A stretch of 64,000 bases of DNA, from NCBI GenBank assembly GCA_035395685.1, contig DAOPBR010000007.1:918-64917 (forward strand), in the 5' to 3' direction. This document shows positions 11,778 to 53,064 of this stretch, piece after piece (position 1 is the stretch's first letter; every line of letters starts with the position of its first letter). The notes under the pieces were generated by a model that was not told where the DNA came from, ran no database searches, and worked only from the letters and a program-made list of their open reading frames with translations. The stretch is from Spirochaetota bacterium. Its GTDB lineage: Bacteria > Spirochaetota > UBA4802 > JAFGJZ01. The position numbers were made by a program, and so were the translations under genes.

Positions 11778-11780
11778 TAA

Positions 11781-16868: not shown

Positions 16869-16941
<73 letters not shown>

Positions 16942-28646: not shown

Positions 28647-30084
28647 AAGCGGAATTGATCCTCATTTTAATTTTTTCAAAACCTATCAGTTTAAGCATCT
28701 CGGCAAGATCGGGTCCGTGAAGAACCGAAGTAAGCAAAGCCCTTACCGGCATAAAAAGATTCTTGCCTTTCAGACCGGTCTTTGCTTTTATCATATTGGT
28801 AATTTCTGTGAAATTATCAGAATTTATTTCATCCGAATCGATAAGCTCTTTCGCTGCAGTTAAAGCAGTTTTGCCTTCAGCAGAAGCAATCATAGCAGTA
28901 GCTTCTTCATCAGCAGTAGGAACATCTTCCGCGAATATAGGAAAAAGTTTCGCGATGTCGGAAAGAAGTTCACAGTTTCCTCTCACGGACGCAATGATTG
29001 TTTCAATATAATCTTCATCGAATTTAGAAAGATCGTATCCCGCTTTTTCAATAAACGGTTTGAAGAGCGAAGTAATTTTTTTGAGATCATAATTTCTTAT
29101 ATAAGCGGCATTCATCCATTTGAGTTTAACGAAATCAAAAACGGCACTCGATTTTCCAAGTCTGTCTATATCGATCTGACGGATGATTTCTTCAAGAGGA
29201 AGAATTTCTTCTCCGCTTTCACTCGACCAGCCGAGAACTGCAATATAGTTCATGAGAGCTTCAGGAAGATAGCCTTCCTGCTTGTAAAGATCCACTGAAG
29301 TGATTCCGTGACGCTTCGAAAGCTTCTTTTTGTCGGGACCGAGAACGAGCGGAAGATGCGCGTATTTCGGTGTCGGCATGTCCAAAGCGCGGGCAATCAT
29401 AACCTGCTTCGGAGTGTTAGGAAGATGATCCTCGCCTCTGATAACATGGCTTATTTCCATGAGAAGATCGTCGATAACGACTATGTAATTATAGATTGGA
29501 ACTCCGTCGCTTCTTACAATTATAAAATCTCCGCCGATATTGTCTGACTCAAATACGACTTTGCCTTTAATTCCGTCTTCTATTTCGATTTTTTCACCGT
29601 CATTGACTTTAAAACGGACTGTCGGCTTTCTGCCTTCTGCTTCATACTGCTTTTTCTTTTCTTCTGAAAGATTGAGACATGTGCGCTTATATGTGAAAGG
29701 AATACCCTTCGCTTCAGATTCGGCTCTCTCGGCATCGAGTTCTTCCTGAGAACAGTAGCAGTGATATGCTTTTTTTTCTGCAAGAAGCTTGTCTGTATAT
29801 TTCTGATATATTTCAAAACGCTCGCTCTGACGGTACGGACCATGACCTTTATCTATATCGGGTCCTTCTGTCCATTCAATGCCGAGCCATTTAAGATCGG
29901 CTATGATTGATTCTTCCGACTCTTTTGAACTGCGTTCCATGTCAGTATCTTCAACACGCAAAAGATATTCTGCGTTGTGTTTTTTCGCTATGATGTAGTT
30001 GATAATAGCTGTTCTCGCGTTTCCTATATGAAGAAAACCCGTCGGGCTTGGGGCAAATCTGACTCTCATTAAAACCTCGGTCAA
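28627..30084 (-). CDS. gltX: Glutamyl-tRNA synthetase
   Basis: HIGNARTA (HIGH) and KLSKR (KMSKS) motifs. 485 aa. Confidence 0.95.
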   Translation of the reverse strand: MTEVLMRVRFAPSPTGFLHIGNARTAIINYIIAKKHNAEYLLRVEDTDMERSSKESEESIIADLKWLGIEWTEGPDIDKGHGPYRQSERFEIYQKYTDKLLAEKKAYHCYCSQEELDAERAESEAKGIPFTYKRTCLNLSEEKKKQYEAEGRKPTVRFKVNDGEKIEIEDGIKGKVVFESDNIGGDFIIVRSDGVPIYNYIVVIDDLLMEISHVIRGEDHLPNTPKQVMIARALDMPTPKYAHLPLVLGPDKKKLSKRHGITSVDLYKQEGYLPEALMNYIAVLGWSSESGEEILPLEEIIRQIDIDRLGKSSAVFDFVKLKWMNAAYIRNYDLKKITSLFKPFIEKAGYDLSKFDEDYIETIIASVRGNCELLSDIAKLFPIFAEDVPTADEEATAMIASAEGKTALTAAKELIDSDEINSDNFTEITNMIKAKTGLKGKNLFMPVRALLTSVLHGPDLAEMLKLIGFEKIKMRINSAYEKNCV

Positions 30085-30314
30085 TAATTATATAGATTAA
30101 CGGAAGGACGCCCGGTTACTATTTCTGAAGAATCGCGTTTAATTCTGCCGACAAGCTTTTGAATCTTTTCAACAGTTTCATCGCTGAAAAGAACCTTACC
30201 GCACCTGGTGCATTTATAAGCCGGTATATTATCAAGAATAAAGCAGAAATTGTCTTCGCTGACACGGTAACTGCTTTTGCCTTCTGTTACCGCACCGCCG
30301 CAGCTGCATTCCAT
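30081..30314 (-). CDS. YgiT/MqsA-N-type zinc-finger protein
   Basis: CSCGG…(22)…CTRCG zinc-ribbon pattern. Start overlaps the gltX region. Confidence 0.5.
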   Translation of the reverse strand: MECSCGGAVTEGKSSYRVSEDNFCFILDNIPAYKCTRCGKVLFSDETVEKIQKLVGRIKRDSSEIVTGRPSVNLYNY

Positions 30315-33126: not shown

Positions 33127-33157
33127 CCGACCTCGATGCTATATTGAATCGAGGTGG
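33127..33157 (+). promoter_or_regulatory. Hairpin pairing the GAGGTGG ribosome-binding site of the next gene (ACCTCGAT / ATCGAGGT stem)
   Basis: 8-bp perfect stem with a 10-nt loop. The 3' arm contains the Shine-Dalgarno sequence, 4 nt before the ATG at 33161. Confidence 0.35.
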
Positions 33158-33160
33158 TTT

Positions 33161-35599
33161 ATGTCAAAATTTTTAATTATCGGCGGCGTTGCCGGAGGAG
33201 CAACAACTGCGGCACGCCTCAGAAGAATCGATGAAGAAAGCGAAATTATAATTATTGAACGCGGAGATTACATTTCATACGCTAACTGCGGACTTCCCTA
33301 CTACATCGGCGGAACAATTGAAAAACGCGAATCGCTCTTCGTTCAGACTCCTGAATCGTTTTTCAAAAGATTCAATGTAGACGTCAGAATAAAATCAGAA
33401 GTCATATCAATAAACAGAGATAAGAAAACAGTCACAGTAAAGGAATCATCCGGAAAAACATACGAAGAAAATTATGACAAACTGGTTCTTTCTCCGGGAG
33501 CCGAACCCATAAAACCCATGATTGACGGAATTAATGATCCGGCAATCTTCACCTTGCGTAGTGTTCCCGACACAGATAAAATCAAAAAATACATAAATGA
33601 TAACAGGCCAACATCTGCAATTGTAATCGGAGGCGGCTTCATAGGTCTCGAAATGGCCGAAAATCTTCACGCACTCGGAATAAAAGTATCTATCGTCGAA
33701 ATGGCTGATCAGGTAATGACGCCTGTTGATTACGAAATCGCGGCATATGCCCATCATCACATCAAAACCAAAGGTGTAGATCTTTTTCTCGGCGACGGCA
33801 TAGCTTCATTTTCACGAAACGGAAATTCCGTTTCGGCAAGGCTCGCGAGCGGCAGAGAAATTGTTTCCGACATGATAATTCTTTCAATAGGAATAAAACC
33901 TGACACCGCATTTCTGCGGACTTCCGGCATTAATCTCAGCGATAGGGGCGCAATTATCGTTGATGAATTTCTGCGCACAAATGACGAAAATATTTATGCT
34001 GTCGGTGACGCAGTAATATTCACAAGTCCGGTAACGAATAAACCCCTGCCAGTATTTCTCGCAGGACCTGCGAACAAGCAGGGAAGAATCGCCGCTAACA
34101 ATATAGCGTTCGGAAATACGGAGAAATACAAAGGTTCGATTGCAACGGCAATAGCAAAAGTTTTTGATCTTACTATTGCTTCATGCGGTCTTTCTGAAAA
34201 ATTTCTAAATGCTCAATCTATCAAATGCAAAAGTTCAATAACAATCAGCGCTTCTCATGCGTCATATTACCCTGGCTCGACTACCATGACAATCAAGCTT
34301 GTTTTCGATCCTGACAACGGAAAAATCCTTGGAGCACAAATAACAGGCTATGATAATGTCGAATCAAAGATAAACATGATTGCGGCTGTGATGGGGATGA
34401 ACGGAACAGTCACCGATCTAAGAAACATTGAACATGCATACGCACCGCCTTATTCTTCAGCAAAAGACGCTGTGAACATCGCGGGCTTCACAGCAGAAAA
34501 TATAGTAAAAGGTGAAGTTCAAACTCTTTCATGGAATGATGTAAAAAGCATTTATCCTTCAGACTGGCAAATAATTGATGTAAGAACTCCGGCAGAATAC
34601 GAGCTCGGTTCGATTATGAATTCAATCAACATTCCGATTGATTCTCTCCGTTCAAGGATTGATGATGTCAGCAAGGACAAAAACATACTGCTTTACTGCG
34701 CGGTAGGATTGAGAGGATATGTTGCGCTTAGAATATTGAAAAACAAAGGATTCAAAAACGTTTATAATCTTTCAGGCGGATACAAGTTATATTCAACTGC
34801 ATCACAAAAGATCGAAGACGGAATAACCCAGGAATGGACAGGAAATGATTCAGGCGAAAAAACAAAAGACAATACCACTGCTGAAGGAAAATCTTTCACA
34901 GTTGATGCCTGCGGACTTCAGTGTCCGGGTCCTGTTATGCGGCTGAAATCAGAAATAGAGAAATTATCAAGCGGAGATATTTTAACAATAAGAGCAACAG
35001 ATGAAGGTTTCATGCGCGATGTCGGCGCATGGTGCCTGATGACAAAAAACACACTTCTTTCAGTAGATAATGAAAAAGGTATCGTCACTGCCCGCATACA
35101 AAAGGGAGCAAAATCTTCTATAAGCGGCAGTAGAGACAATAAAACAATTGTAGTTTTTTCTGATGATCTTGACAAGGCTATCGCCGCTTTTGTAATCGCA
35201 AACGGAGCAGCAAGCACAGGCAAGAAGGTGACCATATTTTTTACATTCTGGGGACTGAACGTTATCAAAAAACGCAAATCAAGATCCAAGAAAGATTTCT
35301 TCTCGAAAATGTTTTCATTCATGATGCCGAAGGGAAGCGGTGAACTCGATTTATCGAAGATGAACATGGCAGGCATGGGTCCGAAGATGATAAGATGGAG
35401 GATGAAGAAAAAAAACATTGATTCTCTCGAAGCAATGATTCAGTCTGCCCTCACGAACAATATTGAATTTATGGCATGTCAGATGTCAATGGATGTAATG
35501 GGAGTTAAAAGAGAAGACTTGATTGACGGAGTTACGATCGGCGGCGTAGCGGCATATCTCAACGAAACCGAGTCAAGCAGTCTCAATCTGTTCATATGA
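33161..35599 (+). CDS. Four-domain CoA-disulfide/persulfide reductase: FAD/NAD(P) oxidoreductase (CoADR-like) + rhodanese + TusA-like + DsrE/DsrF-like
   Basis: SYANCGLPY redox Cys; rhodanese active-site CAVGLRG; TusA CPGP motif (ACGLQCPGPVMRLK); C-terminal DsrE-like domain. Confidence 0.75.
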   Translation: MSKFLIIGGVAGGATTAARLRRIDEESEIIIIERGDYISYANCGLPYYIGGTIEKRESLFVQTPESFFKRFNVDVRIKSEVISINRDKKTVTVKESSGKTYEENYDKLVLSPGAEPIKPMIDGINDPAIFTLRSVPDTDKIKKYINDNRPTSAIVIGGGFIGLEMAENLHALGIKVSIVEMADQVMTPVDYEIAAYAHHHIKTKGVDLFLGDGIASFSRNGNSVSARLASGREIVSDMIILSIGIKPDTAFLRTSGINLSDRGAIIVDEFLRTNDENIYAVGDAVIFTSPVTNKPLPVFLAGPANKQGRIAANNIAFGNTEKYKGSIATAIAKVFDLTIASCGLSEKFLNAQSIKCKSSITISASHASYYPGSTTMTIKLVFDPDNGKILGAQITGYDNVESKINMIAAVMGMNGTVTDLRNIEHAYAPPYSSAKDAVNIAGFTAENIVKGEVQTLSWNDVKSIYPSDWQIIDVRTPAEYELGSIMNSINIPIDSLRSRIDDVSKDKNILLYCAVGLRGYVALRILKNKGFKNVYNLSGGYKLYSTASQKIEDGITQEWTGNDSGEKTKDNTTAEGKSFTVDACGLQCPGPVMRLKSEIEKLSSGDILTIRATDEGFMRDVGAWCLMTKNTLLSVDNEKGIVTARIQKGAKSSISGSRDNKTIVVFSDDLDKAIAAFVIANGAASTGKKVTIFFTFWGLNVIKKRKSRSKKDFFSKMFSFMMPKGSGELDLSKMNMAGMGPKMIRWRMKKKNIDSLEAMIQSALTNNIEFMACQMSMDVMGVKREDLIDGVTIGGVAAYLNETESSSLNLFI

Positions 35600-36219
35600 T
35601 AAAAGCGTATTACATAAGACATAAAGGCGGCGGTTTCGAAATGCCGCCTTTTTTTTGCGACAGCTATCACCAGGAGATAGAATCAACCGCAAACAATGCT
35701 CTGCGCAGCATGAAAAGGATGACATCCGCCCTTCTCGCATTTGCCCTATCTGAAGCTGCAATTATTCCGCCGTATGAAATAAAAAGATCCGCGCACGGAA
35801 AACCGTTTCTTCCAAATGAAAAAATTAAATTCTCATACTGCCATACAGAAGGATTATGTGCCGCGGTTATATCAGATTACGAATGCGGAATTGATGCTGA
35901 GAACATTAACAGAAAAGCGTCATTTGAAGAAATTTCATCGCGCTTTTTTACTTCAGATGAAAACGAATATCTTTCTTCAAGAAATTTTTCAAGCAAAGTC
36001 TTCTATGAAATATGGACAAAAAAGGAAGCCTATTTGAAATTTACAGGAAGAGGCCTCGCTGGCGGACTGAATTCTTTTTCGGTTTTATCGCTTGATAAGG
36101 GAAAAACAACATGCGTCATAATAGACGATTTCATAATCAGCGTATACGGGGAAAGCACTGCCGAAATCCGTGAAATAACTCCAGCCGGTCTTTTTATGAA
36201 ACTTGGGGTTAAGCTTTAA
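35596..36219 (+). CDS. Sfp-type 4'-phosphopantetheinyl transferase
   Basis: GKPF…, GIDAE and WTKKEAYLK motifs. ATGA overlap with the upstream gene. Confidence 0.7.
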
Positions 36220-36868
36220 GAGCTTTTCTCATCATTCCGATTGCTTCGGAATATGAAGAAGAACCGAAAATTGCCGATCCTGAAACGAACGTATCGGCTC
36301 CCGCTGCGGCTATCATTGCGATATTCGATGCGGTTATTCCTCCGTCAACTTCAAGACGGATGTCCCTGCCGGAATTTTTTATTTTCTCGCGCACGGTTTT
36401 AATCTTGGCAATCGAAGAATCTATAAACTTTTGTTTGCCGAAACCGGGATTAACGCTCATGACAAGAATCATGTCGACAATATCAATTATGTAATCAAGA
36501 CAATCGGGTGATGTTGACGGATTCAACGATACTCCGGCTTTGCATCCCGAGTCTTTGATAAGACGCAGTGAACGGTCAAGATGCTCAGTTGATTCAGGAT
36601 GTATAGTTATCCAGTCTGCACCGGATTCTGCAAAATCTCCGATAAGACTGTCGCATGGTTTTACCATCAAATGAACATCAATCGGAGCCTTTATCCCGTA
36701 TTTTTTCAGCGATGAACATACAAGCGGTCCTATAGTAAGGTTCGGAACATAATGATTGTCCATGACGTCAAAATGTATCCAGTCGCCGCCGGCTGAAATA
36801 ACATCTTCGCACTCTTTTCCCAGACGGGAAAAATCGGCAGAAAGTATCGAAGGCGCAATCACGTACAT
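36209..36868 (-). CDS. rpe: Ribulose-phosphate 3-epimerase
   Basis: Rpe TIM-barrel pattern ([17 protein letters not shown]…). Confidence 0.9.
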
Positions 36869-36928: not shown

Positions 36929-37432
36929 TCAGCCGCAACGTTCAATCAGCTTTTCAGATATCAGATACGCAGCCGGGCAATAAAGCGTATTCTGAGCTAG
37001 ACGGGCAAGTTTAGGCTGCATATTTTTTTCGTCGGTATGCGGATATTCACGGCAAGCCCGCGGTCGTATCTCATAAACAGAACAAAGATTGTCTTCAAGA
37101 GCAAACGGACACGGCATCGACTTAAACACATGATCTCCGTCTTCATCCATGCGCAGATATTTTTCAACAAAATCTTTTCTGCGAAGTCCGCAGTGAGACG
37201 ACATCTTTTCAATATCTGTTTCATTAAATAGCGGCCCGAGCTTTCTGCAGCAGTTCGCGCATTTAGTGCAGTCTATATTTTCAAATACTTCCGCATGAAT
37301 CGACTGAAGAATTCTGTCAAATGACTTAATGCTGCGCTTGGACAAAATGCTCATTGATTTTTTTGTCTGATTATAGCGCGACTTCGCCTTTTCGAGAATG
37401 AGCAGGTATTCTTTTTTCATATTACACCACAA
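36929..37432 (-). CDS. YkgJ-family (PF03692-like) Cys-cluster protein
   Basis: CTKCANCC … CPF … C pattern. Confidence 0.65.
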   Translation of the reverse strand: MWCNMKKEYLLILEKAKSRYNQTKKSMSILSKRSIKSFDRILQSIHAEVFENIDCTKCANCCRKLGPLFNETDIEKMSSHCGLRRKDFVEKYLRMDEDGDHVFKSMPCPFALEDNLCSVYEIRPRACREYPHTDEKNMQPKLARLAQNTLYCPAAYLISEKLIERCG

Positions 37433-39551
37433 GTATTATTCCGTTTTCACGAAGGAATGACCACTCCGAACTTTCAGTAAACGGAGCAAACCGCATATCT
37501 TTTTTGATTTCTGATAAAAGTATTTTTTTTCCGGAAAAAATATCAGCTTCATGCACGATATGCATAATTAATTCTGAATTTGATTCAGAGAATTCTATCG
37601 AGTCCGAACCCGATTTATCAGTCAACACAAGAAAATTTCTGCCGCGCTTTTTTTCAATTTCCAGTACACCCGACAAATTCCATAAAATATATTTTCCTTC
37701 CAGAGGAAAATGATCTTCTGATTCATAAATTCTTTTAATTGAGCCTGGTTTAATTCCGGGCTTCTTAACTGCAAAATCAAAAAAAGATGATACGGTAGTT
37801 TTTATTTCTGAATACATATTATAACAGTTTAGCGCTGCACGTAAACCGTTTGAATATAATGAATAATCGCAGATATCACCCGAATATGCCGTTTCATTAT
37901 TTGCAAAAGGATTCATTTTACCCAGAGCCTTCACGCCATAATCTTTTGAATTCATTCCCGAATCACTGTGAACTGTCATCGCATATCTGTGAAAATATGC
38001 AGACGTCAGATATCCGTTTTCAAACATCTGTCTCACGGTCTCAAGAGAATCTGAAACCTCCTGCTCTGTCTGCGTAGGAAAACCGTATATAAGATATGAA
38101 TGAACCATTATTCCGGCATTTGTAAAATTAGCGCATGTTGTAATCGCTTCTTCAAGAGCAACACCCTTTTTCATTAATTCAAGAATGCGCCTGTTTGCCG
38201 CCTCAAGCCCGCCGCTTACACCGATACAGCCTGCAACAGAAAGAAGTCTCGCCATATCCATTGTGAAACTTTTTTCAAAGCGGATATTGCCCCACCAGCT
38301 TATGGAAAGTTTTCTGCTAATTAATTCCAGTGACAATTCGCGCAGCAAAGCCGGCGGCGCGGCTTCGTCTGTAAAATGAAAAGAATTTATTCCGGTTTCT
38401 TTGACAAGTTTTTCTATTTTATCCGCCGCACCTTCTGATGTTTCCGGTTCAAACCGGCATATATAATCAAGTGAGGTATCACAGAATGCGCATTTCTTCC
38501 AGTAACATCCGTGAGCAAGAGTCATCTTCAGATAAAAGTCCGAATTCCACATCGAAAGCATCGGATTGGCATTGTCCGAAAGCATAAGATACCTAGTGGT
38601 ATCTATATCCGAATAATCTGCATAAAAACCTTCATATATCTTTGCATCGGCTTCGTCCGAATCACGGAATACTATTTTCTCATCCTCAATAAAAAATGTG
38701 CGCTTAAACGAATAAGATTCGCCGCGCGCTTTTTTTATGATATTGAGAAGAGGCTTCTCGCCGTCATCAAGCGTCATATACTGAGCATAGTCAAAAAACT
38801 TCTTCTCTCTGATATTTCTAAGTTCGGTATTGACGAAACCTCCCCCGGCGCATCTTGTAATTTCCGGATAGTTATCCCTGACAAAACGGAGGGCTCGAAG
38901 TGCATTAACAAGTGTACCCGGGAAAGGTATGCTGACAGCAAATATATCAGGATTGTATTTTTCAATTTCAGCGCGCAAAAGACTGTAATACATTTCTGTG
39001 ATAATATTATCTTTAAGTACTTCATCTTCAACGGGAGCAAAAGTTTCAGCCGATACGGAAATTCTTTCGGCATACTTCGCAAGAGCAAATGAAGAATCTA
39101 CTGTTTCTGAAATGAATCTTGCCATATCCGCAAGAAAAAATGTGCACATAATTCTTGCCCGCTCAATATCATTATCAGAAGAAACGCCTGAAAGAATAAT
39201 CTGCGCACGTTCTCCGCTTTCAGGCAGAATACCTCCTCTGACTATTCTTCTTGCTGAAGCGGTGTTGCTTCGCTGCAGAAAATCCATTACAAAATCAGCC
39301 GAATCGGTAAAAGAATCTTTTACAATAAAAATCTTTTCGGAAAATTTTGTGCTGATGAATTGTTCAGCCGAATCAAATATTTTCCTCATTCCACCAGAAG
39401 AAAATACTTTATGAGCAAGCATGATACTCATATCAGCCTGATGCGCAGAATATCCAATCGATTTCAGGTAGCGGAGAAGATATCCCGCTGCTGGATACGG
39501 GCAATTAAACTGCGTAAACGGCGGCGTAATTATTAAAAGATCAGAACTCAC
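37422..39551 (-). CDS. Large radical-SAM-like protein with B12-binding-like N-terminal domain and CX4CX2C cluster
   Basis: HGCYWKKCAFCD. 709 aa. Overlaps both neighbours. Confidence 0.5.
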   Translation of the reverse strand: MSSDLLIITPPFTQFNCPYPAAGYLLRYLKSIGYSAHQADMSIMLAHKVFSSGGMRKIFDSAEQFISTKFSEKIFIVKDSFTDSADFVMDFLQRSNTASARRIVRGGILPESGERAQIILSGVSSDNDIERARIMCTFFLADMARFISETVDSSFALAKYAERISVSAETFAPVEDEVLKDNIITEMYYSLLRAEIEKYNPDIFAVSIPFPGTLVNALRALRFVRDNYPEITRCAGGGFVNTELRNIREKKFFDYAQYMTLDDGEKPLLNIIKKARGESYSFKRTFFIEDEKIVFRDSDEADAKIYEGFYADYSDIDTTRYLMLSDNANPMLSMWNSDFYLKMTLAHGCYWKKCAFCDTSLDYICRFEPETSEGAADKIEKLVKETGINSFHFTDEAAPPALLRELSLELISRKLSISWWGNIRFEKSFTMDMARLLSVAGCIGVSGGLEAANRRILELMKKGVALEEAITTCANFTNAGIMVHSYLIYGFPTQTEQEVSDSLETVRQMFENGYLTSAYFHRYAMTVHSDSGMNSKDYGVKALGKMNPFANNETAYSGDICDYSLYSNGLRAALNCYNMYSEIKTTVSSFFDFAVKKPGIKPGSIKRIYESEDHFPLEGKYILWNLSGVLEIEKKRGRNFLVLTDKSGSDSIEFSESNSELIMHIVHEADIFSGKKILLSEIKKDMRFAPFTESSEWSFLRENGIILVV

Positions 39552-42391
39552 AGTTCTACTTTAATTCCGTAATAGAATTCTTTCTGACCGTACTTGTCGA
39601 ATCCGTTTGCAAAACCGGCATACACGGTATGGTTGAGAAAATATCCAGTTGTCATATCAAACATAATTTCACAGCCGGCGCTTCTATAATACTTTTTATC
39701 TTTTGAATCCTTCGAAGCGCTTGAATAAAGACGCGCCGCTTCAAAAAAAGGCCGGATATAATTTACATGATTAAAAACCGGAATTCTGTCAAACCCGTTA
39801 TTCAGCCTGAAAAGAGGCATTATATATTCTGCCGTAATTGACTGATAGCGGTTGCCCCACACCTTGTCTTTTTCATATCCGCGTATACCGTCTTCCATAT
39901 TGTCAAGACTGTTTGTGAAAACTTTTTTTGAACGGGCAAGGGAAAACGGCGAACTGAAATATTCATCAGCATTTGAATGACCGAACTTTCCGGTAAATGA
40001 AAAACAGTGATTATAAATAAATGAAGGAAGCCTTAATGAAAGTGCTCCGAAATAATTTTTAAGTTCAGAATCATCACCGAACTTCTTAGAATAATTTTCC
40101 GCATAACCGTGGAAAAAAAATCCGCGTTCTTTCGTAACTGAATAAGTAAACATCTCTGAGGTATTAAAGTCTAAAACAGCTTTTACTACACCCTTCTTTC
40201 CTTCAATCTCATAAACAACACCGTTTCTGTTATATTCCCAGAATGTTTTCCCCCGGGTATAATATAATCCGAGATTCGCCTGATATTTCATTTTCATATA
40301 CGGAATCATAAGAATTCCCGAATATGAGTTTTCTGTTGTCCGTTTAGTATCCTCTTCAATATCATACGGAAAATCATTTTCTTTCCAGAACAGACGTTCA
40401 TTCAGATATGATGCTCCGAGTGTAAACAAATGATTAAAATTATAGAGATATAATGCTGATACAGTTGATCTTTTCTGAGAAAAATCGTTAACAGAAAACA
40501 ATGACAGATTGTGAATCAAAAGAGTATCGGAAAATTGGAAATAGGAATAAAGCGTATTATTATAGCCGCTCTCATCAGAAATTTTTTCACCCTGAAGCGA
40601 GAAAAGAAAAAGCCACATCCATGGAGAAACATTAAACAATGAATAATATTTTTTTTCTTCAAAAACCGCTTCAGCAGCATTATCACTTTCGATTGAATTA
40701 TCAGCAGAAAATGATTTCTCCATGGGAAAAGATTCAGCAGCCGCAGGATAATTCATTATCCCCACTCCGTATCCGCCGTCTCCGAAAACAGTAAATGCCA
40801 GCTTATTGCCGTTTGGTGAAACATCGGATGAAAAAGCTCCGGTAAGCAGGTTGGTAAGCCTTGATGCCGTTCCTGATTTTATTTTTAACTCATAAAGATT
40901 AAAAATACCGGTTCTATCGGATGAAAAGACCAATTCAGAATCATTCTTCCATGCCGGAAACATGCAAAATGATCCCCTAATTGAATATTTTGACACCTTT
41001 AAATCTTCAATATTCAAAACTGCGATTACGGTCTTTCCCTGATTTTCTTTATCACGCATCGAATACGCAATTTTTTTACCATCGGGCGAAAATCTGCAAT
41101 GGGAAATCTGAACGAAAGATTCTAATAATATTTTTTCATTTTTAAAATCACTGCCGCATACTGAAAGAACATACTTCCCTGCATCCTCGCTTATCATACA
41201 GACTTTGCCGTTTTTAACATCAATCCATGACGAACGTTTTTTCCGGACTGAAGCACTTTCTTTGCCTGACTTTTTTAAATCATAATACAATCGGCTGTTG
41301 CCGTATAATTCAAGCGAGTTATAGTAAAGATTCCCATCCTCTCCGGCAAAAGACTGACAGTACACAGTGTCTTCAATTTTTTTATCATAAAGAAATTTGG
41401 AATTCAGCTTGCGAAACCTTATTGATTCGCCCGTGTGAGGAGAATCTTTTACATAATACAAAGCGCTATCCGATTCAAACCGCGGATTTCCTGAATTAAA
41501 TGAATATGGACAAACCAGATAAAACTTTGAAATTCCGGCAGATTCAATTTTTGCTTTTTCATTTGTAAACTCAGCAAGCTGAAACCTTTTCCATTCATCC
41601 CATGTATCCAGAAGAGACGCGCCGTACTGTTTACGGAAATTTCCGTACATCTGAAACGGAAAAATATTATGAGCATTAATTTCGAACTGCTCAGCGAACT
41701 GACCCTTTTCAAAATATGCCGAGTTCATATAATTTACAAAATACGCACCGTAGAGATAGGCTATGTTTCCCCCAGGCCATCCGGCATGCGAATTTGCTGC
41801 TTCAGAAAGTGAACGGTCATTGCCGGCAAGAAAATCAGTACGCACAATCATTCTTGCAAGAGAGCTTGAAAGTCTTCCGGAATTTTCGAGCTGTGATTCG
41901 CTATATACTGCGTTGCCTTCAAGCTGCCAAAGAGGAACAATAGCATTAGGAAATGCAACAAATCTTCCGGTAAAAATATATATAAATCTCCAGAAGCCGT
42001 ACCGTTTATCCATATTCAGAATATGGGTGAACTCATGAACAAATACAGACTCAAGCCAGTTATTCATATTACCAATAGTATCTTCGGGCTGAGGCGACTT
42101 GAGATATATTCTTATAATATTATCAGGTGAAGGTGTAGCATAACCGTTTGAAATATCCATATCATCTGTCAGAACAATTTTAACTTTTGAATAAGGAATC
42201 CATTTCTGCGATTTCGTCAACGCGGGATAATGCTTCTCGGATATCAGAGCAAGTCGTGCGGCATACTTATAAAGATTATCCTCATAGATTATTTTAAAGT
42301 GATCAGTCTCTATATACTTATAACTTGCAGCATGAATTACTCCGAATGAACAAATCATGAAAAAAGCCGCAAACATTATTTTTCTAAACAT
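39548..42391 (-). CDS. Secreted HExxH zinc-peptidase-like protein fused to TolB-like (PD40) beta-propeller repeats
   Basis: Signal peptide; HEFTHILN…E; repeated FSPDGKKIAYS and VSPNGNKLAF motifs. 947 aa. Confidence 0.45.
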   Translation of the reverse strand: MFRKIMFAAFFMICSFGVIHAASYKYIETDHFKIIYEDNLYKYAARLALISEKHYPALTKSQKWIPYSKVKIVLTDDMDISNGYATPSPDNIIRIYLKSPQPEDTIGNMNNWLESVFVHEFTHILNMDKRYGFWRFIYIFTGRFVAFPNAIVPLWQLEGNAVYSESQLENSGRLSSSLARMIVRTDFLAGNDRSLSEAANSHAGWPGGNIAYLYGAYFVNYMNSAYFEKGQFAEQFEINAHNIFPFQMYGNFRKQYGASLLDTWDEWKRFQLAEFTNEKAKIESAGISKFYLVCPYSFNSGNPRFESDSALYYVKDSPHTGESIRFRKLNSKFLYDKKIEDTVYCQSFAGEDGNLYYNSLELYGNSRLYYDLKKSGKESASVRKKRSSWIDVKNGKVCMISEDAGKYVLSVCGSDFKNEKILLESFVQISHCRFSPDGKKIAYSMRDKENQGKTVIAVLNIEDLKVSKYSIRGSFCMFPAWKNDSELVFSSDRTGIFNLYELKIKSGTASRLTNLLTGAFSSDVSPNGNKLAFTVFGDGGYGVGIMNYPAAAESFPMEKSFSADNSIESDNAAEAVFEEKKYYSLFNVSPWMWLFLFSLQGEKISDESGYNNTLYSYFQFSDTLLIHNLSLFSVNDFSQKRSTVSALYLYNFNHLFTLGASYLNERLFWKENDFPYDIEEDTKRTTENSYSGILMIPYMKMKYQANLGLYYTRGKTFWEYNRNGVVYEIEGKKGVVKAVLDFNTSEMFTYSVTKERGFFFHGYAENYSKKFGDDSELKNYFGALSLRLPSFIYNHCFSFTGKFGHSNADEYFSSPFSLARSKKVFTNSLDNMEDGIRGYEKDKVWGNRYQSITAEYIMPLFRLNNGFDRIPVFNHVNYIRPFFEAARLYSSASKDSKDKKYYRSAGCEIMFDMTTGYFLNHTVYAGFANGFDKYGQKEFYYGIKVEL

Positions 42392-45488: not shown

Positions 45489-45797
45489 ATGCCGAAACAC
45501 TCATGCGACAAATGTTCCGAAAAACTTGCACATCATTCATCCGAATTAAAATCCGATATAGACAAAAGAATATCCAAAATCGAAGGTCAGATAAGGGGAA
45601 TACGAAAGATGATTTCCGAAGACAAGTACTGCGATGACGTATTGAATCAGATTACGTCCGCGCAATCAGCATTAAACAGCGTCAGGATCATGCTTCTTGA
45701 AAACCATATTAATTCATGTGTCGCAGAACAGCTTGCTGAAGGCGATAAGTCCGTTATTGACGAGTTAATGAAAACAATAGCGAGAATGGTGAGGTAA
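45489..45797 (+). CDS. csoR: CsoR/RcnR-family copper-sensing repressor
   Basis: DUF156 pattern with YCDDVLNQ … H … C ligand set. Confidence 0.85.
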   Translation: MPKHSCDKCSEKLAHHSSELKSDIDKRISKIEGQIRGIRKMISEDKYCDDVLNQITSAQSALNSVRIMLLENHINSCVAEQLAEGDKSVIDELMKTIARMVR

Positions 45798-45859
45798 TAA
45801 TGAATCCAGACGTCTTCAGCGGAAGCGGCGGATCGATGCACGGAATGTAAGGAGATTAT

Positions 45860-48004
45860 ATGAAACAGTCGGAATTTATCATTACAGGAATGAGTTGTGC
45901 AGCATGCAGCGGACGCGTTGATAAAAAAATCTGTTCGCTTCCGGGGGTGCAAAGCGCAAACGTGAATCTGGCAACAAACAAAGTTATGGTAACATATAAC
46001 GAAGAGACTGTCAGAGTTGATGATATAATTTCGGCTGTACGCTCCATCGGATTCGGCGCGGAGGAATTTCAGGAGAATACCGCCGAGAAATCAAGACTTG
46101 ACGAGTTAAAGTCGCATAGACTTTCCTTCATAGTCTCCGGCATACTTTCCTTTCCGCTTCTGGTTTCAATGATTCTTATGCTATTCAAAACCGGACCCGA
46201 TTTCCTTCACAATCCGGTTTTTCAGTTCATTTTGGCAACTCCGGTTCAGTTTATCATCGGCGCCAGATTCTATAAAAAAAGTTTCATAACATTAAAAAGT
46301 CTTTCTCCCGGCATGGACATTCTCGTCGCGCTGGGAACGAGTGCTGCGTATTTTTACAGCGCTTTTAACACCTTTATACGTCCGGATCATTTCCATATAT
46401 ATTATGAAGCCGGAGCAGTAATAATAACCCTTGTTATACTCGGAAAATATCTCGAATCACGCGCTAAATACAAAACATCATCTTCAATCAGAAAATTAAT
46501 TGATCTTAAACCGAAAACTGCCCGCGTTATACGGGAAGGAAAAGAATATGAAATAAACAGCTCCGAGATAATTATCGGGGATGAAATCATTGTACGACCA
46601 GGAGAAAAGTTTCCTTCGGACGGAACGGTAATCGGCGGTGAAAGCTCCGTTGACGAAAGCATGATTACCGGCGAAGGAATACCCGTTTATAAAAATGCCG
46701 GAATGAAAGTCCTCAGCGGATGTATAAATATCGACGGTGTAATACATTTCCGTTCTGAAAAAAACGGCAAGGATACACTTCTTGCCCAGATTATTTCAAT
46801 CGTTGAAAAAGCCCAGAACTCGAAAGCACCGGTGCAGGATCTCGCAAACAGAATTGCCGGAATTTTCGCGCCTTCAATAATCATAATATCAATAATAACG
46901 TTTTTTGCATGGTTTTTAATTACTGGTGACTTATCAAACGCAATTATCAATTCAGTAGCCGTTCTTGTAATAGCCTGCCCATGCGCTCTTGGACTCGCGA
47001 CTCCGACAGCCATAATGGTCGGAACAGGAATAGGAGCTGAAAGAGGAATATTAATACGCGACGCGGAAGCACTGGAACGCGGTGAACAGATCAACGCTGT
47101 AGTTCTTGATAAAACAGGAACCATAACTGAAGGCAAGCCTTCCCTTTCATCGGTAGTCAGCATTAATGAAACTCCGGTATCTGATCTGGAATTGATACGA
47201 AAATGCGCATCCCGTTCGGAACATCCTTTATCGAAAGCTGTTTCTATACCTATCGAAGATATGTTAATTGATTCTTTCACATCTTTTCCCGGAAGGGGAT
47301 TCAAAGCAGTTAAATCCGGAAAGAGTGTCATTCTTGGAAGCATGCGCTTTTTGGAATCAGAGGGAATCGATACCGGCATATTTGAAAATCATATAAATGC
47401 TTACAGAGGTTCTTCCATCGTTGCAGCAGCGATTAACAATAAACCTGCCGCATTGTTTATACTAAACGATAGGATTCGCCCAGAATCGGTTGAAGCTGTT
47501 AAAGTCCTTCAAGAAAGATCAATAGAAGTATACATAGTCAGCGGAGATTCACGTGAAGCCGTATTGGCTGCCGCTGACAGCCTTGGCATTCTCCGCGACA
47601 ATGCAGTCTTTGAGGCGCTTCCGTCCCGGAAATCTGATTTCGTAACGTCACTTAAAGACAATGGCAAAAAGGTTCTTTTCGCAGGCGACGGAATTAACGA
47701 CGCTCCCGCGCTGGCAACATCTGATCTTGGAACTGCACTGGGAAGCGGAACTGACATAGCTATTGATTCGGCACACATAGCCCTTATCCGTCCGGATCTG
47801 CGGGCAATAATAACCGCGCTGGATCTGTCAAAGGCAACAATGAAAAAGATCCGCCGTAATCTTTTTTGGGCTTTTTTTTACAATTCATGCGGAATTCCGA
47901 TTGCGGCAATGGGATTTCTGAATCCTGTAATAGCCGGAGCCGCTATGGCGCTTAGTTCGGTATCAGTTGTTATGAATTCATTGTCTCTAAAAAGATTCAA
48001 GTGA
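45860..48004 (+). CDS. copA: Copper-translocating P1B-type ATPase with N-terminal HMA domain
   Basis: GMSCAACSGRV, CPC (ACPCALGLATP), DKTGT and GDGINDAP motifs. Confidence 0.95.
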   Translation: MKQSEFIITGMSCAACSGRVDKKICSLPGVQSANVNLATNKVMVTYNEETVRVDDIISAVRSIGFGAEEFQENTAEKSRLDELKSHRLSFIVSGILSFPLLVSMILMLFKTGPDFLHNPVFQFILATPVQFIIGARFYKKSFITLKSLSPGMDILVALGTSAAYFYSAFNTFIRPDHFHIYYEAGAVIITLVILGKYLESRAKYKTSSSIRKLIDLKPKTARVIREGKEYEINSSEIIIGDEIIVRPGEKFPSDGTVIGGESSVDESMITGEGIPVYKNAGMKVLSGCINIDGVIHFRSEKNGKDTLLAQIISIVEKAQNSKAPVQDLANRIAGIFAPSIIIISIITFFAWFLITGDLSNAIINSVAVLVIACPCALGLATPTAIMVGTGIGAERGILIRDAEALERGEQINAVVLDKTGTITEGKPSLSSVVSINETPVSDLELIRKCASRSEHPLSKAVSIPIEDMLIDSFTSFPGRGFKAVKSGKSVILGSMRFLESEGIDTGIFENHINAYRGSSIVAAAINNKPAALFILNDRIRPESVEAVKVLQERSIEVYIVSGDSREAVLAAADSLGILRDNAVFEALPSRKSDFVTSLKDNGKKVLFAGDGINDAPALATSDLGTALGSGTDIAIDSAHIALIRPDLRAIITALDLSKATMKKIRRNLFWAFFYNSCGIPIAAMGFLNPVIAGAAMALSSVSVVMNSLSLKRFK

Positions 48005-49240: not shown

Positions 49241-51970
49241 ATGGAAAAGAGCACCATTGACATACTGTGGATCATCATCGCTTCGACCCTTGTTTTCATT
49301 ATGCAGGCGGGCTTTGCGATGGTTGAATCGGGACTAACCCGTTCAAAGAACAGCATCAATGTAGCTATCAAAAACCTTACCGACCTCGGAATATCGACTC
49401 TGTGTTTCTGGGCATGCGGATTCGCAATGATGTTCGGCGCATCAGCTTACGGTTTTATCGGCAGTGACAATTTTCTGTTTCATCCAGTAAGCATATGGGG
49501 CGCAGTCTTCTTTCTATTTCAGGTAATGTTCTGCAGTACATCCGCAACAATTGTTTCCGGAGCTGTCGCCGAAAGAATGAAATATTCATCATACATAATT
49601 TCAACCGCTCTGCTTTCGGTTATCATATATCCCATATTCGGTCACTGGGCATGGGGCGGTTTTATGGAGGGCGTACCAAGCGGCTTTCTCGGAAAACTCG
49701 GCTTCATTGACTTCGCGGGCTCAACAGTCGTTCATTCCGTCGGAGGCTGGGTCTCTCTCGCAGTACTTTTGATCATAGGTCCGAGAAGCGGAAAATTTGC
49801 AGAAGACGGAACATCCCGCCAGATAAACGGGAGCAATATTCCCATAACAGTACTTGGTGTAATGATACTCTGGTTCGGCTGGTTCGGATTCAACGGCGGA
49901 AGCACTCTCGCCATGAATGAAACAGTTCCTTCAATAATTCTCAACACTACTCTTGCCGCATCAGCAGGAATGATCGGATCGCTTATGGTCGGTTGGCCGA
50001 TACTTAAAAAACCCGACATACTTCTTGTTCTAAACGGTTCGCTTGCCGGTCTTGTTGCAATAACTGCATCATGTTTCGCAGTAACTGAAATTGAATCGGT
50101 CATAATCGGATTTGTCGGAGGCGCCGTAATGCTCGCCGCGACAGTCATCCTTGAAAAACTTAAGATTGATGACGCGGTCGGAGCAATTCCAGTGCATCTT
50201 GTTGCGGGCATATGGGGAACAATTGCCGTTGCTGTTTTCGGCGATCCCGCGATATTAAATACCGGTCTAGGATTCATAGGTCAGCTCAAGATTCAGTTAA
50301 TAGGAATTGCTTCATGCGGAATTTGGTCTTTCGGCGTTGCTTTTTCGGTGCTGTTTATAGTTAATAAAATATCACCTCTAAGAGTTTCAAAAGAAGACGA
50401 ACATACGGGATTAAACAAAACCGAGCACGGTGTTACAACTGAAATATTTGAATTATTTTCCGTACTCGAAGCACAGTCAAGAACAGGCGATCTTTCTCTT
50501 CGCGCACCGGAAGAACCCTTCACTGAAATCGGCCAGATTGCAAAAATGTATAATTCTGTAATGAGAAAACTCGAATCCGGTACTGTCGAAAAGGGAGAAT
50601 ATCTTAATATTCTTGATAATGTTTCCGATGGACTGATACTAATCGATAGAAGCGGAACAATTTCTCAGTATCATTCCGCTTCGATGAAGAATCTTTTTTC
50701 AACGGAATTAATTTCCGGAAAAAACTTTAAGGACTTGTTAAGCTCGCGCATTCCCGAAAACGTATTAGCTATACTTGATGAATTTCTTGAAATCGCGTTC
50801 GACAAAAAGAAAAGCTTCCGTATTGTCGAGAAGATGAATCCGATTCCCGAAATAGAACTGTCTTTTGATAATTTGAACGGCGGTTTTAATGTTAAGTATT
50901 TTCAATTTATATTCAAGCGTATTGTTAAAAATTCCGAAGTATCAAGACTAATGATTGTAATACGCGATATAACAAGACAAAGAGAGCTTTCGCAGGAGGT
51001 TGAAGAAAACAGAAAGAGAACATCAGTTGAAATGGAACTCTTCTATAGAATTCTTCATGTGGAACCGGCATCAATGCGCGACTTTCTGACATCGGCTGAA
51101 ACTGATTTATCTGAAATCAATTCCGTGATGTCGGAATCACAAACAGAATATTATGAAAGACTAAATGAAATATTCAGACGCATTCATGCCGTAAAGGGTG
51201 ACGCCGACATGCTCGGCCTGGACTTTATTGCAGAAAAAGCGCAGATTATGGAAACGAATGTCGCTGAAGCATTAAGAAGCGAATCACCTTCAAATGAAAT
51301 ATTTCTATCGCTCGCTCTTAAGCTCGGGGAGATAAGGGAGTTGCTCTTTAAAATAGATTCTCTTATGAAAAAATGGAAGACCATGCATGCTGAAATTTCT
51401 GATGACAATAGATCATTTCTTCCAAGAGCACTTTCAGATCTTGCCGCACGGCTTTGCGAACGACATAAAAAAAGCGTCAAAGTAGAATTTGATTCCGGGA
51501 ATACTGAGGAAATTCCATCCGCCGTATTCAAACACGTGAAGGATATTCTTGTTCAGCTTGTCAGAAATTCTGTTTATCATGGAATAGAAAATCCCGAAGA
51601 AAGAAAGAAACTCAACAAAGACTCAAGCGGAAAAATAGCGATTAAAACGCATAAGGAAAACGGAAAACTTATTATAAAATATAAAGACGACGGCTCGGGT
51701 CTAGACAGCGATAAAATAAAACAAACGGCATTGGCTAAAAAGCTAATTACCGAAGATGATTCTTCCGCTTTAACGGAAAAAGACATATTCGCTCTGGTTT
51801 TCAGACCTGATTTCTCAACATCAGATTCTGTAAACAAAACCGCCGGGCGCGGAGTCGGAATGAATCTTGTAAAAACTCTCATAACCGGGCTAAAAGGCAA
51901 AATCGCACTTAGATCAAAAAGAGGCGAATCGCTTGAATTCGAAATTCATATTCCAATCGAGGCAAAATGA
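49241..51970 (+). CDS. Ammonium transporter (Amt) fused to PAS, Hpt (CheA-P1-like) and CheA-P4-like ATPase domains
   Basis: Amt signature DFAGSTVVHSVGGW and 11 TM helices. HAVKGDADMLG Hpt. LVRNSVYHGIE…DDGSGLD…GRGVGMNLV CheA-type catalytic domain. No P5/CheW-like domain. Confidence 0.7.
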   Translation: MEKSTIDILWIIIASTLVFIMQAGFAMVESGLTRSKNSINVAIKNLTDLGISTLCFWACGFAMMFGASAYGFIGSDNFLFHPVSIWGAVFFLFQVMFCSTSATIVSGAVAERMKYSSYIISTALLSVIIYPIFGHWAWGGFMEGVPSGFLGKLGFIDFAGSTVVHSVGGWVSLAVLLIIGPRSGKFAEDGTSRQINGSNIPITVLGVMILWFGWFGFNGGSTLAMNETVPSIILNTTLAASAGMIGSLMVGWPILKKPDILLVLNGSLAGLVAITASCFAVTEIESVIIGFVGGAVMLAATVILEKLKIDDAVGAIPVHLVAGIWGTIAVAVFGDPAILNTGLGFIGQLKIQLIGIASCGIWSFGVAFSVLFIVNKISPLRVSKEDEHTGLNKTEHGVTTEIFELFSVLEAQSRTGDLSLRAPEEPFTEIGQIAKMYNSVMRKLESGTVEKGEYLNILDNVSDGLILIDRSGTISQYHSASMKNLFSTELISGKNFKDLLSSRIPENVLAILDEFLEIAFDKKKSFRIVEKMNPIPEIELSFDNLNGGFNVKYFQFIFKRIVKNSEVSRLMIVIRDITRQRELSQEVEENRKRTSVEMELFYRILHVEPASMRDFLTSAETDLSEINSVMSESQTEYYERLNEIFRRIHAVKGDADMLGLDFIAEKAQIMETNVAEALRSESPSNEIFLSLALKLGEIRELLFKIDSLMKKWKTMHAEISDDNRSFLPRALSDLAARLCERHKKSVKVEFDSGNTEEIPSAVFKHVKDILVQLVRNSVYHGIENPEERKKLNKDSSGKIAIKTHKENGKLIIKYKDDGSGLDSDKIKQTALAKKLITEDDSSALTEKDIFALVFRPDFSTSDSVNKTAGRGVGMNLVKTLITGLKGKIALRSKRGESLEFEIHIPIEAK

Positions 51971-53064
51971 AAGGAGTAAATCTAAACTGCGAAACTAATT
52001 GTCGCTTTTTCAAGTTTTACAAAAATTCGAGAGAAGCTATGTTCATCACGAATATCGACGGAACTTATTTCGATGTAAATAAAAGCATGGAAAAACTTCT
52101 CGGCTATTCACGTGATGAATTCCTTTCAATGAAAGCCGCCGATACTTACTTTGACCAGTCCGAACGCTCGGCTTACAGAAGCATGATTGAAAAAGACGGA
52201 GTGGTTCACAATTATCCTATAACACTCAAGCGCAAAGATACCTCGCCTCTTCCCTGCCTAATAGATGCAGTAACATGGGAAGAAGACGGAGTTCTCAAAG
52301 GATATCACGGCATAATAAAAACCCGTGATGACGTAATGGATTCATTTCAGAATCTTTTTCTGAAATTAAAAAATGAAGAAGAAAAGCTGAAAAATGAAAG
52401 ACGTAATCTCGCAAACGACGCCAAACTTCTGATGCAGTATGTTTCGGATGATCTGATACGCCACATTCAGGACACGGGAGAGAATCCGCTTTCAAGCACA
52501 AAGAAAAAAGGAACGATGATGTTCTTTGATATCAGAAATTCTACCGCAATAGCCGGGAAACTTCAGCCTGATGTTTTCGCGTCATTGCTTTCGGATATTT
52601 TTACTGACACGATGGATCTCATATACGGCAACAGCGGCTCAGTTAATAAACTCGTCGGTGACGGATTTCTGGCGACTTTCGGATGCCCGGTTTCATGCGG
52701 AAATGATGCTGAAAATGCAGTCAGAAGCGCACTTCAGATAATGGAATATTTGAAAACATTCAACGATGTCAGACCTGATTATCTTGCAGAACCTATAAAA
52801 GCCGGAATAGGAATCGCGACCGGAACGGTTTTTTCGGGCGTTATAGGTTCGGTAAGACGGCAGGAATATACCGTTCTAGGAGATGCTGTAAACATTGCAA
52901 GCAGGCTTGAGTCATTTACAAAGAACGTCAATTTCAATATAATAATTGATGAAAACACATACCGTGAAACTTCTGAAATATGCAAGTGGGGAAAAATAGC
53001 AAACGTGATGCTGCGCGGCAAACCGGACGCGTTTACTCTGTACGGTTACAACAGCTTAGGGTAA
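51967..53064 (+). CDS. PAS-domain class III adenylate/guanylate cyclase
   Basis: MFFDIRNSTAI … VGDGFLATFG cyclase motifs. ATGA overlap with the upstream gene. Confidence 0.75.
   Translation: MKGVNLNCETNCRFFKFYKNSREAMFITNIDGTYFDVNKSMEKLLGYSRDEFLSMKAADTYFDQSERSAYRSMIEKDGVVHNYPITLKRKDTSPLPCLIDAVTWEEDGVLKGYHGIIKTRDDVMDSFQNLFLKLKNEEEKLKNERRNLANDAKLLMQYVSDDLIRHIQDTGENPLSSTKKKGTMMFFDIRNSTAIAGKLQPDVFASLLSDIFTDTMDLIYGNSGSVNKLVGDGFLATFGCPVSCGNDAENAVRSALQIMEYLKTFNDVRPDYLAEPIKAGIGIATGTVFSGVIGSVRRQEYTVLGDAVNIASRLESFTKNVNFNIIIDENTYRETSEICKWGKIANVMLRGKPDAFTLYGYNSLG

Follow-up and report, generated by a model that had tools for sequence, protein, structure and literature searches.

Genes at the locus

The 64,000-nt stretch of Spirochaetota DNA analysed here (hereafter, the window) carries on its forward strand a gene for an 812-amino-acid (aa) protein in which four modules are fused: a CoA-disulfide reductase (CoADR; CoA, coenzyme A), a rhodanese, a TusA and a DsrE2 domain (33161..35599 including the stop codon; ATG start). 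A second forward-strand gene, which encodes a 207-aa Sfp-type 4'-phosphopantetheinyl transferase (PPTase) with the motifs HGKP, GIDAE and WTKKEAYLK (35596..36219), overlaps the end of the fusion gene by the four nucleotides ATGA (35596..35599). The ATG of the PPTase (35596-35598) thus lies over the TGA of the fusion (35597-35599), in the junction ttcATATGAtaa. The PPTase gene in turn converges with a reverse-strand ribulose-phosphate 3-epimerase gene (rpe, 36209..36868), and the 3' ends of the two genes overlap by 11 nt (36209-36219). An earlier, sequence-only reading of this DNA had proposed that the PPTase overlap ties the detoxification of CoA persulfide and disulfide to carrier-protein activation. 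Our results suggest another explanation, to which we assign a probability of roughly 0.7: the fusion belongs to a known four-domain family and the PPTase downstream of it is a passenger gene.

A fusion of four sulfur-trafficking modules

The presence of the four modules in a single polypeptide was borne out by a Pfam domain scan, in which all five matches were far over their gathering scores: Pyr_redox_2 (aa 3-285, E 3.5e-61), Pyr_redox_dim (aa 331-433), Rhodanese (aa 468-545, E 1.5e-17), TusA (aa 580-648, E 2.4e-19) and DrsE_2 (aa 660-811, E 2.5e-57). The N-terminal, CoADR-type module (aa 3-445; 33167..34495) is a class-I pyridine-nucleotide-disulfide oxidoreductase that combines motifs for FAD and NAD(P)H with a domain for dimerisation. 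Its dinucleotide-binding motifs are GGVAGG (aa 8-13) and VIGGGFIG (aa 155-162), and its redox cysteine is Cys43 (codon 33287-33289). The rhodanese domain (34562..34795) has its active-site Cys513 (codon 34697-34699) in CAVGLRG, the TusA domain (34898..35104) has Cys588 (codon 34922-34924) in CPGP, and the DsrE2-type domain (35138..35593) contains Cys773 (codon 35477-35479).

Every motif quoted in the sequence-only reading (the CoADR redox cysteine, the cysteine of CAVGLRG and the CPGP of TusA) is present in the translation, where the cysteine motifs read SYANC43GLPY, LLYC513AVGLRG, C584GLQC588PGP and FMAC773QMS. We searched for homologues in one GTDB genome per species; this yielded 467 relatives, of which 80 were kept; these span the protein completely or almost so. 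When these were aligned with the window protein, C43, C513, C588 and C773, one per module, were found to be invariant (81/81), and the four further cysteines of the fusion were found to vary. The invariance of these four residues indicates that all four sulfur-trafficking modules are, as judged from the alignment, catalytically intact.

Residues 1-548 match three PDB entries from end to end: the Bacillus anthracis CoADR-rhodanese protein (CoADR-RHD; 3ICR, E 2.7e-178 over residues 3-547), the Shewanella loihica protein Npsr (3NTA, E 5e-160) and the Enterococcus faecalis CoA-persulfide reductase (CoAPR; 8A56, E 7e-140). Cys43 and Cys513 of the fusion, its redox and rhodanese cysteines, fall in register with all three. 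Finally, the C-terminal domain matches a DsrE protein from structural genomics (3PNX, E 4e-29).

A widespread and already described family

The 80 homologues share 51-95% identity with the window protein and originate from Bacteroidales (including Bacteroides, Parabacteroides and Prevotella), Cloacimonadota, Spirochaetes and Clostridia. A protein search with the fusion gave at least 8000 clusters. The Pfam set of the fusion recurs in every one of the best 120, for which the sources use the names 'CoA-disulfide reductase' or 'FAD-dependent oxidoreductase'. One four-domain protein, Bacteroides fragilis BF638R_0572, is in print: its TIGR03385, rhodanese, TusA and DsrE/DsrF/DrsH domains were tabulated, de-repression of the gene reaches 50-fold when BmoR, the MarR repressor encoded next to it, is mutated, and deletion of the gene raises diamide sensitivity (Sci Rep 2018, PMC6158253). 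The architecture of the fusion has thus been described before. BF638R_0572, a pyridine nucleotide-disulfide oxidoreductase of ~825 aa, presents the four domains in the same order as the window fusion. This likeness is one of domain description rather than of alignment; the Bacteroidales homologues are 51-59% identical to the window fusion over the full length.

The gene neighbourhoods of the two proteins differ. A MarR repressor gene adjoins the fusion gene in B. fragilis, whereas the lineage of the window has a Na+/H+ exchanger gene upstream and the overlapping PPTase gene downstream. Across the 80 loci, the gene most often found next to the fusion is one of the MarR family, 120 aa in length (23/80), followed by ArsR-like and thioredoxin genes (7/80 each), and no MarR gene was found within ~12 kb of the window fusion gene. 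An adjacent MarR gene is a common accessory of the four-domain family and not a defining feature. These results place the window fusion, whose 812 aa fit the ~810-830 aa expected of the type, as an intact member of a widespread, already described family with the architecture CoADR-rhodanese-TusA-DsrE2.

Proposed mechanism of the fusion protein

Our proposed mechanism draws on the two-domain relatives that have been solved or assayed: B. anthracis CoADR-RHD, Shewanella Npsr and E. faecalis CoAPR. Their family has been described as one of single-cysteine FAD reductases in which tightly bound CoA is used to reduce di-, per- and polysulfides (PMC6026696). The E. faecalis enzyme (EfCoAPR) needs both C42 and the rhodanese C508. 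Across protomers, ~27 Å separate these two cysteines, a distance spanned by a pantetheine arm that swings; in cells, its persulfidation is found on the rhodanese cysteine only (PMC9405070). The two-domain proteins have in common with the window fusion the redox cysteine in S[FY]ANCGLPY, the rhodanese cysteine and, presumably, the swinging arm of bound CoA. They end after the rhodanese, however, whereas the window fusion adds ~265 residues that form the TusA and DsrE2 domains and bring in one invariant cysteine apiece.

These additional domains recall CstA of Staphylococcus aureus, a fused rhodanese/TusA/DsrE protein in which persulfide is reported to move from the rhodanese cysteine to the TusA cysteine (Higgins et al. 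2015, as cited in another paper). CstA possesses the same rhodanese/TusA/DsrE-like set as the window fusion, a likeness drawn from its description and not from an alignment. Unlike the fusion, CstA has no flavoprotein reductase, and its gene sits in a CstR-controlled sulfide-oxidation operon with the persulfide dioxygenase CstB and SQR.

By analogy with these systems, NAD(P)H would reduce the FAD of the fusion, which would then reduce a mixed disulfide, Cys43-S-S-CoA. The tightly bound CoA would swing between Cys43 and a persulfide on the rhodanese Cys513, and sulfane sulfur, which may come from CoA-SSH, polysulfide or protein persulfides, would leave as H2S. TusA Cys588 and DsrE2 Cys773 would most likely constitute a built-in relay that gathers sulfane or thiosulfonate sulfur for the rhodanese cysteine. 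The fusion looks like a CoAPR whose rhodanese doubles in a CstA-like relay, and its substrates and the direction of the relay are those that the related proteins suggest. Physiologically, such a protein would serve the homeostasis of thiols and sulfane sulfur in a fermentative anaerobe that relies on CoA.

Alternatively, the fusion could act chiefly as a catabolic electron sink, i.e., as a cytoplasmic NAD(P)H-dependent reductase of polysulfide, elemental sulfur or thiosulfate similar to Npsr or to Thermotoga Nsr, to which TusA and DsrE2 would hand over thiosulfonate or sulfane sulfur imported from outside. The close similarity to Shewanella Npsr mentioned above is compatible with such a role, and the host is a fermentative anaerobe with an [FeFe]-hydrogenase maturation cluster. 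DsrE3A and TusA of Metallosphaera carry thiosulfonate (PMC4175335), and Thermotoga maritima uses an NAD(P)H polysulfide/thiosulfate reductase together with a yeeE/dsrE/tusA cluster. However, we found neither a YeeE-type importer nor other sulfur-respiration genes near the fusion in the window or in the 80 loci, the usual partner of the fusion gene is a stress regulator of the MarR or ArsR type, and the phenotype in B. fragilis is sensitivity to a thiol oxidant (PMC6158253). We consider this role possible but unlikely, and we retain thiol and sulfane-sulfur homeostasis as the predicted function.

The PPTase and its start codon

The PPTase presented a Pfam ACPS domain (aa 97-178, E 3.3e-16, 59.8 bits with a cut-off of 25 bits), and its best NCBIfam matches were group-II (Sfp-type) families, namely AusB, HetI, AcpT and EntD. 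It shares with Sfp, AcpT, HetI, EntD and AusB the ACPS domain and the motifs HGKP, G-I-D-x-E and W-x-x-K-E-x-x-x-K, and its length of ~207 aa fits a two-lobed Sfp-type enzyme (roughly 200-240 aa). The assignment to the Sfp type made in the sequence-only reading was thus confirmed. All of these matches are under the NCBIfam equivalog cut-offs, and the enzyme belongs to a subfamily of its own. When the profile search was conducted with both types of paired PPTase (that of the window and that of a more distant locus, L088, described below), this subfamily comprised 13 clusters, after which the score fell from 265 to 115 bits; the nearest PPTases outside it are at most 45% identical. The motifs GIDAE and WTKKEAYLK are invariant in both sublineages (window and L088).

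The junction sequence bore out the ATGA overlap, and several observations support the start codon that lies within it. In codons 2-7, the five haplotypes of the gene differ by five synonymous third-position changes and one non-synonymous change, a pattern typical of coding sequence. The N-terminal strand M-x-K-[AV]-[FY]-[FY]-x-I-x-H is common to the window enzyme and to the L088 enzyme, which is only 34% identical. Moreover, the L088 PPTase possesses no Met at the position equivalent to M16 of the window enzyme, and its next in-frame Met is residue 44, which leaves no full-length alternative start. Based on this substitution pattern, this conservation and the lack of an alternative start in L088, the ATG of the ATGA overlap is very probably the true start of the PPTase. 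No Shine-Dalgarno (SD)-like sequence was found upstream of this ATG, which fits translation by termination-reinitiation.

An alternative is that the PPTase is not translationally coupled to the fusion, that it starts at the internal ATG of M16 (35641) or further downstream on a transcript of its own, and that the ATGA overlap is artefactual. Indeed, the Joint Genome Institute (JGI) gene call of a 74%-identical homologue begins at the equivalent of M16 (188 aa), the sequence GGCGG found 7 nt upstream of the M16 ATG is a possible weak SD, a promoter-like match is located at 35655-35683, and relatives of the enzyme include shorter PPTases of 159-161 aa. The coding-type pattern of codons 2-7 and the N-terminal strand of L088 both argue against an internal start, and the promoter scan overall performed no better than chance (16 matches vs 18.4 expected). 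In addition, the M16 ATG (35641-35643) straddles the loop and the 3' arm of a hairpin, spanning the end of the former and the first base of the latter. An internal start is therefore quite unlikely.

A terminator-like hairpin inside the PPTase gene

This hairpin belongs to an element resembling an intrinsic terminator, which occupies codons 10-20 of the PPTase gene on the forward strand (35623..35656; stem AAAGGCGGC / GCCGCCTTT, followed by T8). The hairpin and its T8 tract begin 26 nt past the stop codon of the fusion, counted from the first base of TGA. We detected terminator-like hairpins 3' of the fusion gene in 35/81 loci, usually 20-40 nt past the stop codon, compared to a background of 2.9% in random segments of the same loci. 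This suggests that the fusion gene is normally the last gene of its transcription unit. The offset of the hairpin in the window is the one at which other lineages carry the terminator of the fusion gene. The window hairpin is kept in five haplotypes with one compensatory change, from A-T to T-A, in the L003 group, and its stem codons GGC GGC / CCG are invariant. We also considered that the ATGA start might be spurious given the presence of a terminator, and we rejected this possibility based on the substitution pattern and the conservation of the N-terminus.

In the GC-richer L088 lineage, another and very stable hairpin occupies the matching place at the 5' end of the PPTase gene (L088 10479-10504, also present in L092-L094): a perfect stem of 10 bp, GAAGCACCGG-AGATAT-CCGGTGCTTC, with a z-score of -4.0. 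It is not followed by a T-run, and L092 presents one uncompensated synonymous change in it. An Rfam scan detected no known RNA near the locus, the only match being a tRNA at 16869-16941.

Judging from these sequence features, PPTase levels are probably low: the gene would be expressed from transcripts that extend past the terminator of the fusion, and its translation would begin by termination-reinitiation at ATGA. The leaky terminator would tune the bicistron such that the reductase is abundant and the PPTase is present in traces.

Extent of the fusion-PPTase pairing

The phylogenetic extent of the pairing was assessed across the 80 loci. With the window PPTase as query, tblastn gave matches in 3/80 loci only (L001-L003), whose fusions are 89-95% identical to that of the window. 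A profile hidden Markov model of the PPTase, based on 65 homologues and run against the open reading frames (ORFs) of at least 60 aa in the 80 loci with 6-kb flanks, recovered the same three loci. By both methods, no PPTase was found beside the fusion in 77/80 species loci; one further Spirochaetes fusion, P0085, presents a MarR gene upstream and no PPTase. Metagenome and look-up searches extended the window clade with further members, all of which have the same junction.

The pairing is also found in one deeper relative (P0070/L088), whose fusion is 62-63% identical and whose PPTase is 34% identical to that of the window; the GC content of L088 is 57%, compared to 39% for the window. Its junction, TTTATATGA, is identical to that of the window and the same convergent rpe lies downstream, but the upstream genes differ. 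This arrangement is confirmed by three short contigs (L092-L094). The pairing and the flanking rpe synteny that L088 shares with the window point to common descent. These results indicate that the adjacency of the fusion and the PPTase is an old synteny block in one lineage and not a recurrent association. Conservation of the pair in other genomes, which the proposed coupling would have called for, was thus largely lacking, with one clade and one deeper syntenic relative accounting for the cases found.

The PPTase as a probable passenger gene

All lineages with the pairing carry rpe at the same place, retained no less faithfully than the PPTase itself, and its convergent overlap with the PPTase gene amounts to 18 nt in L088 and L092-L094. 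Together, the ATGA overlap and the rpe overlap interlock three genes and may have frozen the arrangement in one lineage. Moreover, PPTases related to that of the window overlap the ends of other genes: one overlaps the end of metK by 4 nt and another the end of an AMP-binding ligase gene by 1 nt, while a third adjoins coaD and a gene for an acyl-ACP thioesterase (ACP, acyl carrier protein). The overlapped genes are unrelated. Overlapping the tail end of a neighbour appears to be habitual in this group of PPTases and not the sign of a shared pathway.

We did not find any PP-binding, nonribosomal peptide synthetase or polyketide synthase gene among the ~58 ORFs of the window that were scanned, a few small ORFs lying outside the scan. 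A 77-aa ORF (30084-30314) was considered as a candidate carrier protein in view of its ACP-like size and was rejected because it has no Pfam match. No sulfur importer, persulfide dioxygenase, SQR, CstR-type regulator or other sulfur-trafficking gene is located within ~12 kb of the fusion, and no paper in the literature searched mentions a PPTase together with a CoA disulfide reductase.

From the equal retention of rpe, the overlap of related PPTases with unrelated genes, the embedded terminator and the lack of carrier-protein and sulfur genes nearby, we infer that the downstream Sfp-type PPTase is a passenger gene and not a pathway partner of the fusion. The proposed link between CoA-persulfide or disulfide detoxification and carrier-protein activation was not borne out. 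Adjacency was the only observation behind it, and the same evidence (PPTases overlapping other genes, a hairpin past the junction and no carrier gene among the ORFs scanned) weighs against a functional coupling.

It has nonetheless to be asked whether the fusion and the PPTase could form a module guarding 4'-phosphopantetheine thiols, in which the reductase provides the co-translated PPTase with clean CoASH and keeps CoA, and perhaps the arms of holo-carrier proteins, free of persulfide and disulfide. Both enzymes bind CoA, one related PPTase adjoins coaD, and the ATGA overlap has been kept, together with the PPTase N-terminus, across two deeply diverged sublineages. However, the pairing is absent from nearly all fusion loci (77/80), including those of other Spirochaetes, the unrelated rpe is conserved equally well, and overlaps with unrelated genes are seen for related PPTases. 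Just past the junction, within the 5' end of the PPTase gene, there is a terminator-like element, and neither a carrier-protein gene among the window ORFs scanned nor, in the literature searched, a paper naming both enzymes was found. Such a module appears very unlikely. Least likely of all, and hardly to be expected, is an adaptive pairing in which the embedded terminator slaves PPTase synthesis to the persulfide/disulfide reductase, to its expression as well as its translation: only ribosomes that end at UGA and reinitiate at the overlapping AUG would then trail the polymerase closely enough to suppress the hairpin, carrier-protein phosphopantetheinylation would rise exactly when the CoA pool is cleared of persulfide, and the identical 4'-phosphopantetheine thiol borne by holo-carrier proteins might be a further target of the reductase.

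Several points weigh against our preferred explanation of a known four-domain fusion followed by a passenger PPTase. TIGR03385 matches the fusion with an E-value of 6.9e-146 and 486.5 bits, which is lower than its equivalog cut-off of 578.8 bits, and strict equivalence to a CoA-disulfide reductase is therefore not established by sequence. No biochemical data for four-domain members were found in the literature searched, and the substrate and the direction of the relay are extrapolated. The loci inspected for the pairing represent 80/467 relatives. The pairing has outlived a large divergence (39% vs 57% GC; PPTases 34% identical), which could reflect selection instead of interlocking. Finally, the evidence for selection on the hairpin itself is thin and at most suggestive, with one compensatory change in the window hairpin and one uncompensated change in the L088 lineage.

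Upstream region and wider genomic context

The spacer between the Na+/H+ exchanger gene and the fusion gene is 51 nt long and holds a conserved element on the forward strand (33130..33157). This element comprises the box TGcTATATT (33137-33145), which resembles an extended -10, together with a hairpin, ACCTCGAT / ATCGAGGT, over the SD sequence GAGGTGG; the hairpin variants of relatives keep the pairing via G-U. This organisation suggests that the fusion gene has its own promoter. The surroundings of the fusion consist of housekeeping genes: gltX, dus, ssb, a P83/100 homologue, rpe and ftsZ.

Other regions of the window present distinct gene clusters. The [FeFe]-hydrogenase maturation cluster is located at 7798-12995 and encodes a TM1266-like regulator, two radical-SAM proteins (HydG/HydE-like), an aspartase-family lyase and HydF. 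On the reverse strand, a conserved block at 36929-42391 encodes a CxxCxxCC protein, a 709-aa radical-SAM protein and a 947-aa PD40/Tricorn-like protein, and is syntenic in the loci L081 and L082. At 45489-48001, a CsoR-family metal-sensing repressor gene (45489-45794) adjoins a gene for a P-type ATPase with an HMA domain. Because this ATPase is of the copper type, the repressor is probably a copper efflux regulator and not a CstR-type persulfide sensor. The region 49241-53061 encodes a 909-aa fusion of Amt ammonium transporter, Hpt and histidine-kinase ATPase domains; a PAS-adenylate/guanylate cyclase gene comes directly after it, and the two may form a signalling pair that senses ammonium. 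Outside of the window, an unrelated metagenome contig (L090) carries an overlapping metK-PPTase pair twice (2817-4654 and 7045-8654), with an integrase gene between the two pairs and the second metK copy split into two ORFs.

Implications

The PPTase overlap reveals no new pathway; at most, it provides an example of a gene for a low-abundance enzyme that harbours, in its 5' coding region, the terminator of the gene upstream. The four-domain family is very common among anaerobes of gut and sediment (Bacteroidales, Cloacimonadota, Spirochaetes and Clostridia). A clean assay of any of its members would reveal how CoA-based anaerobes clear sulfane sulfur, and this value attaches to the family as a whole rather than to the locus of the window.

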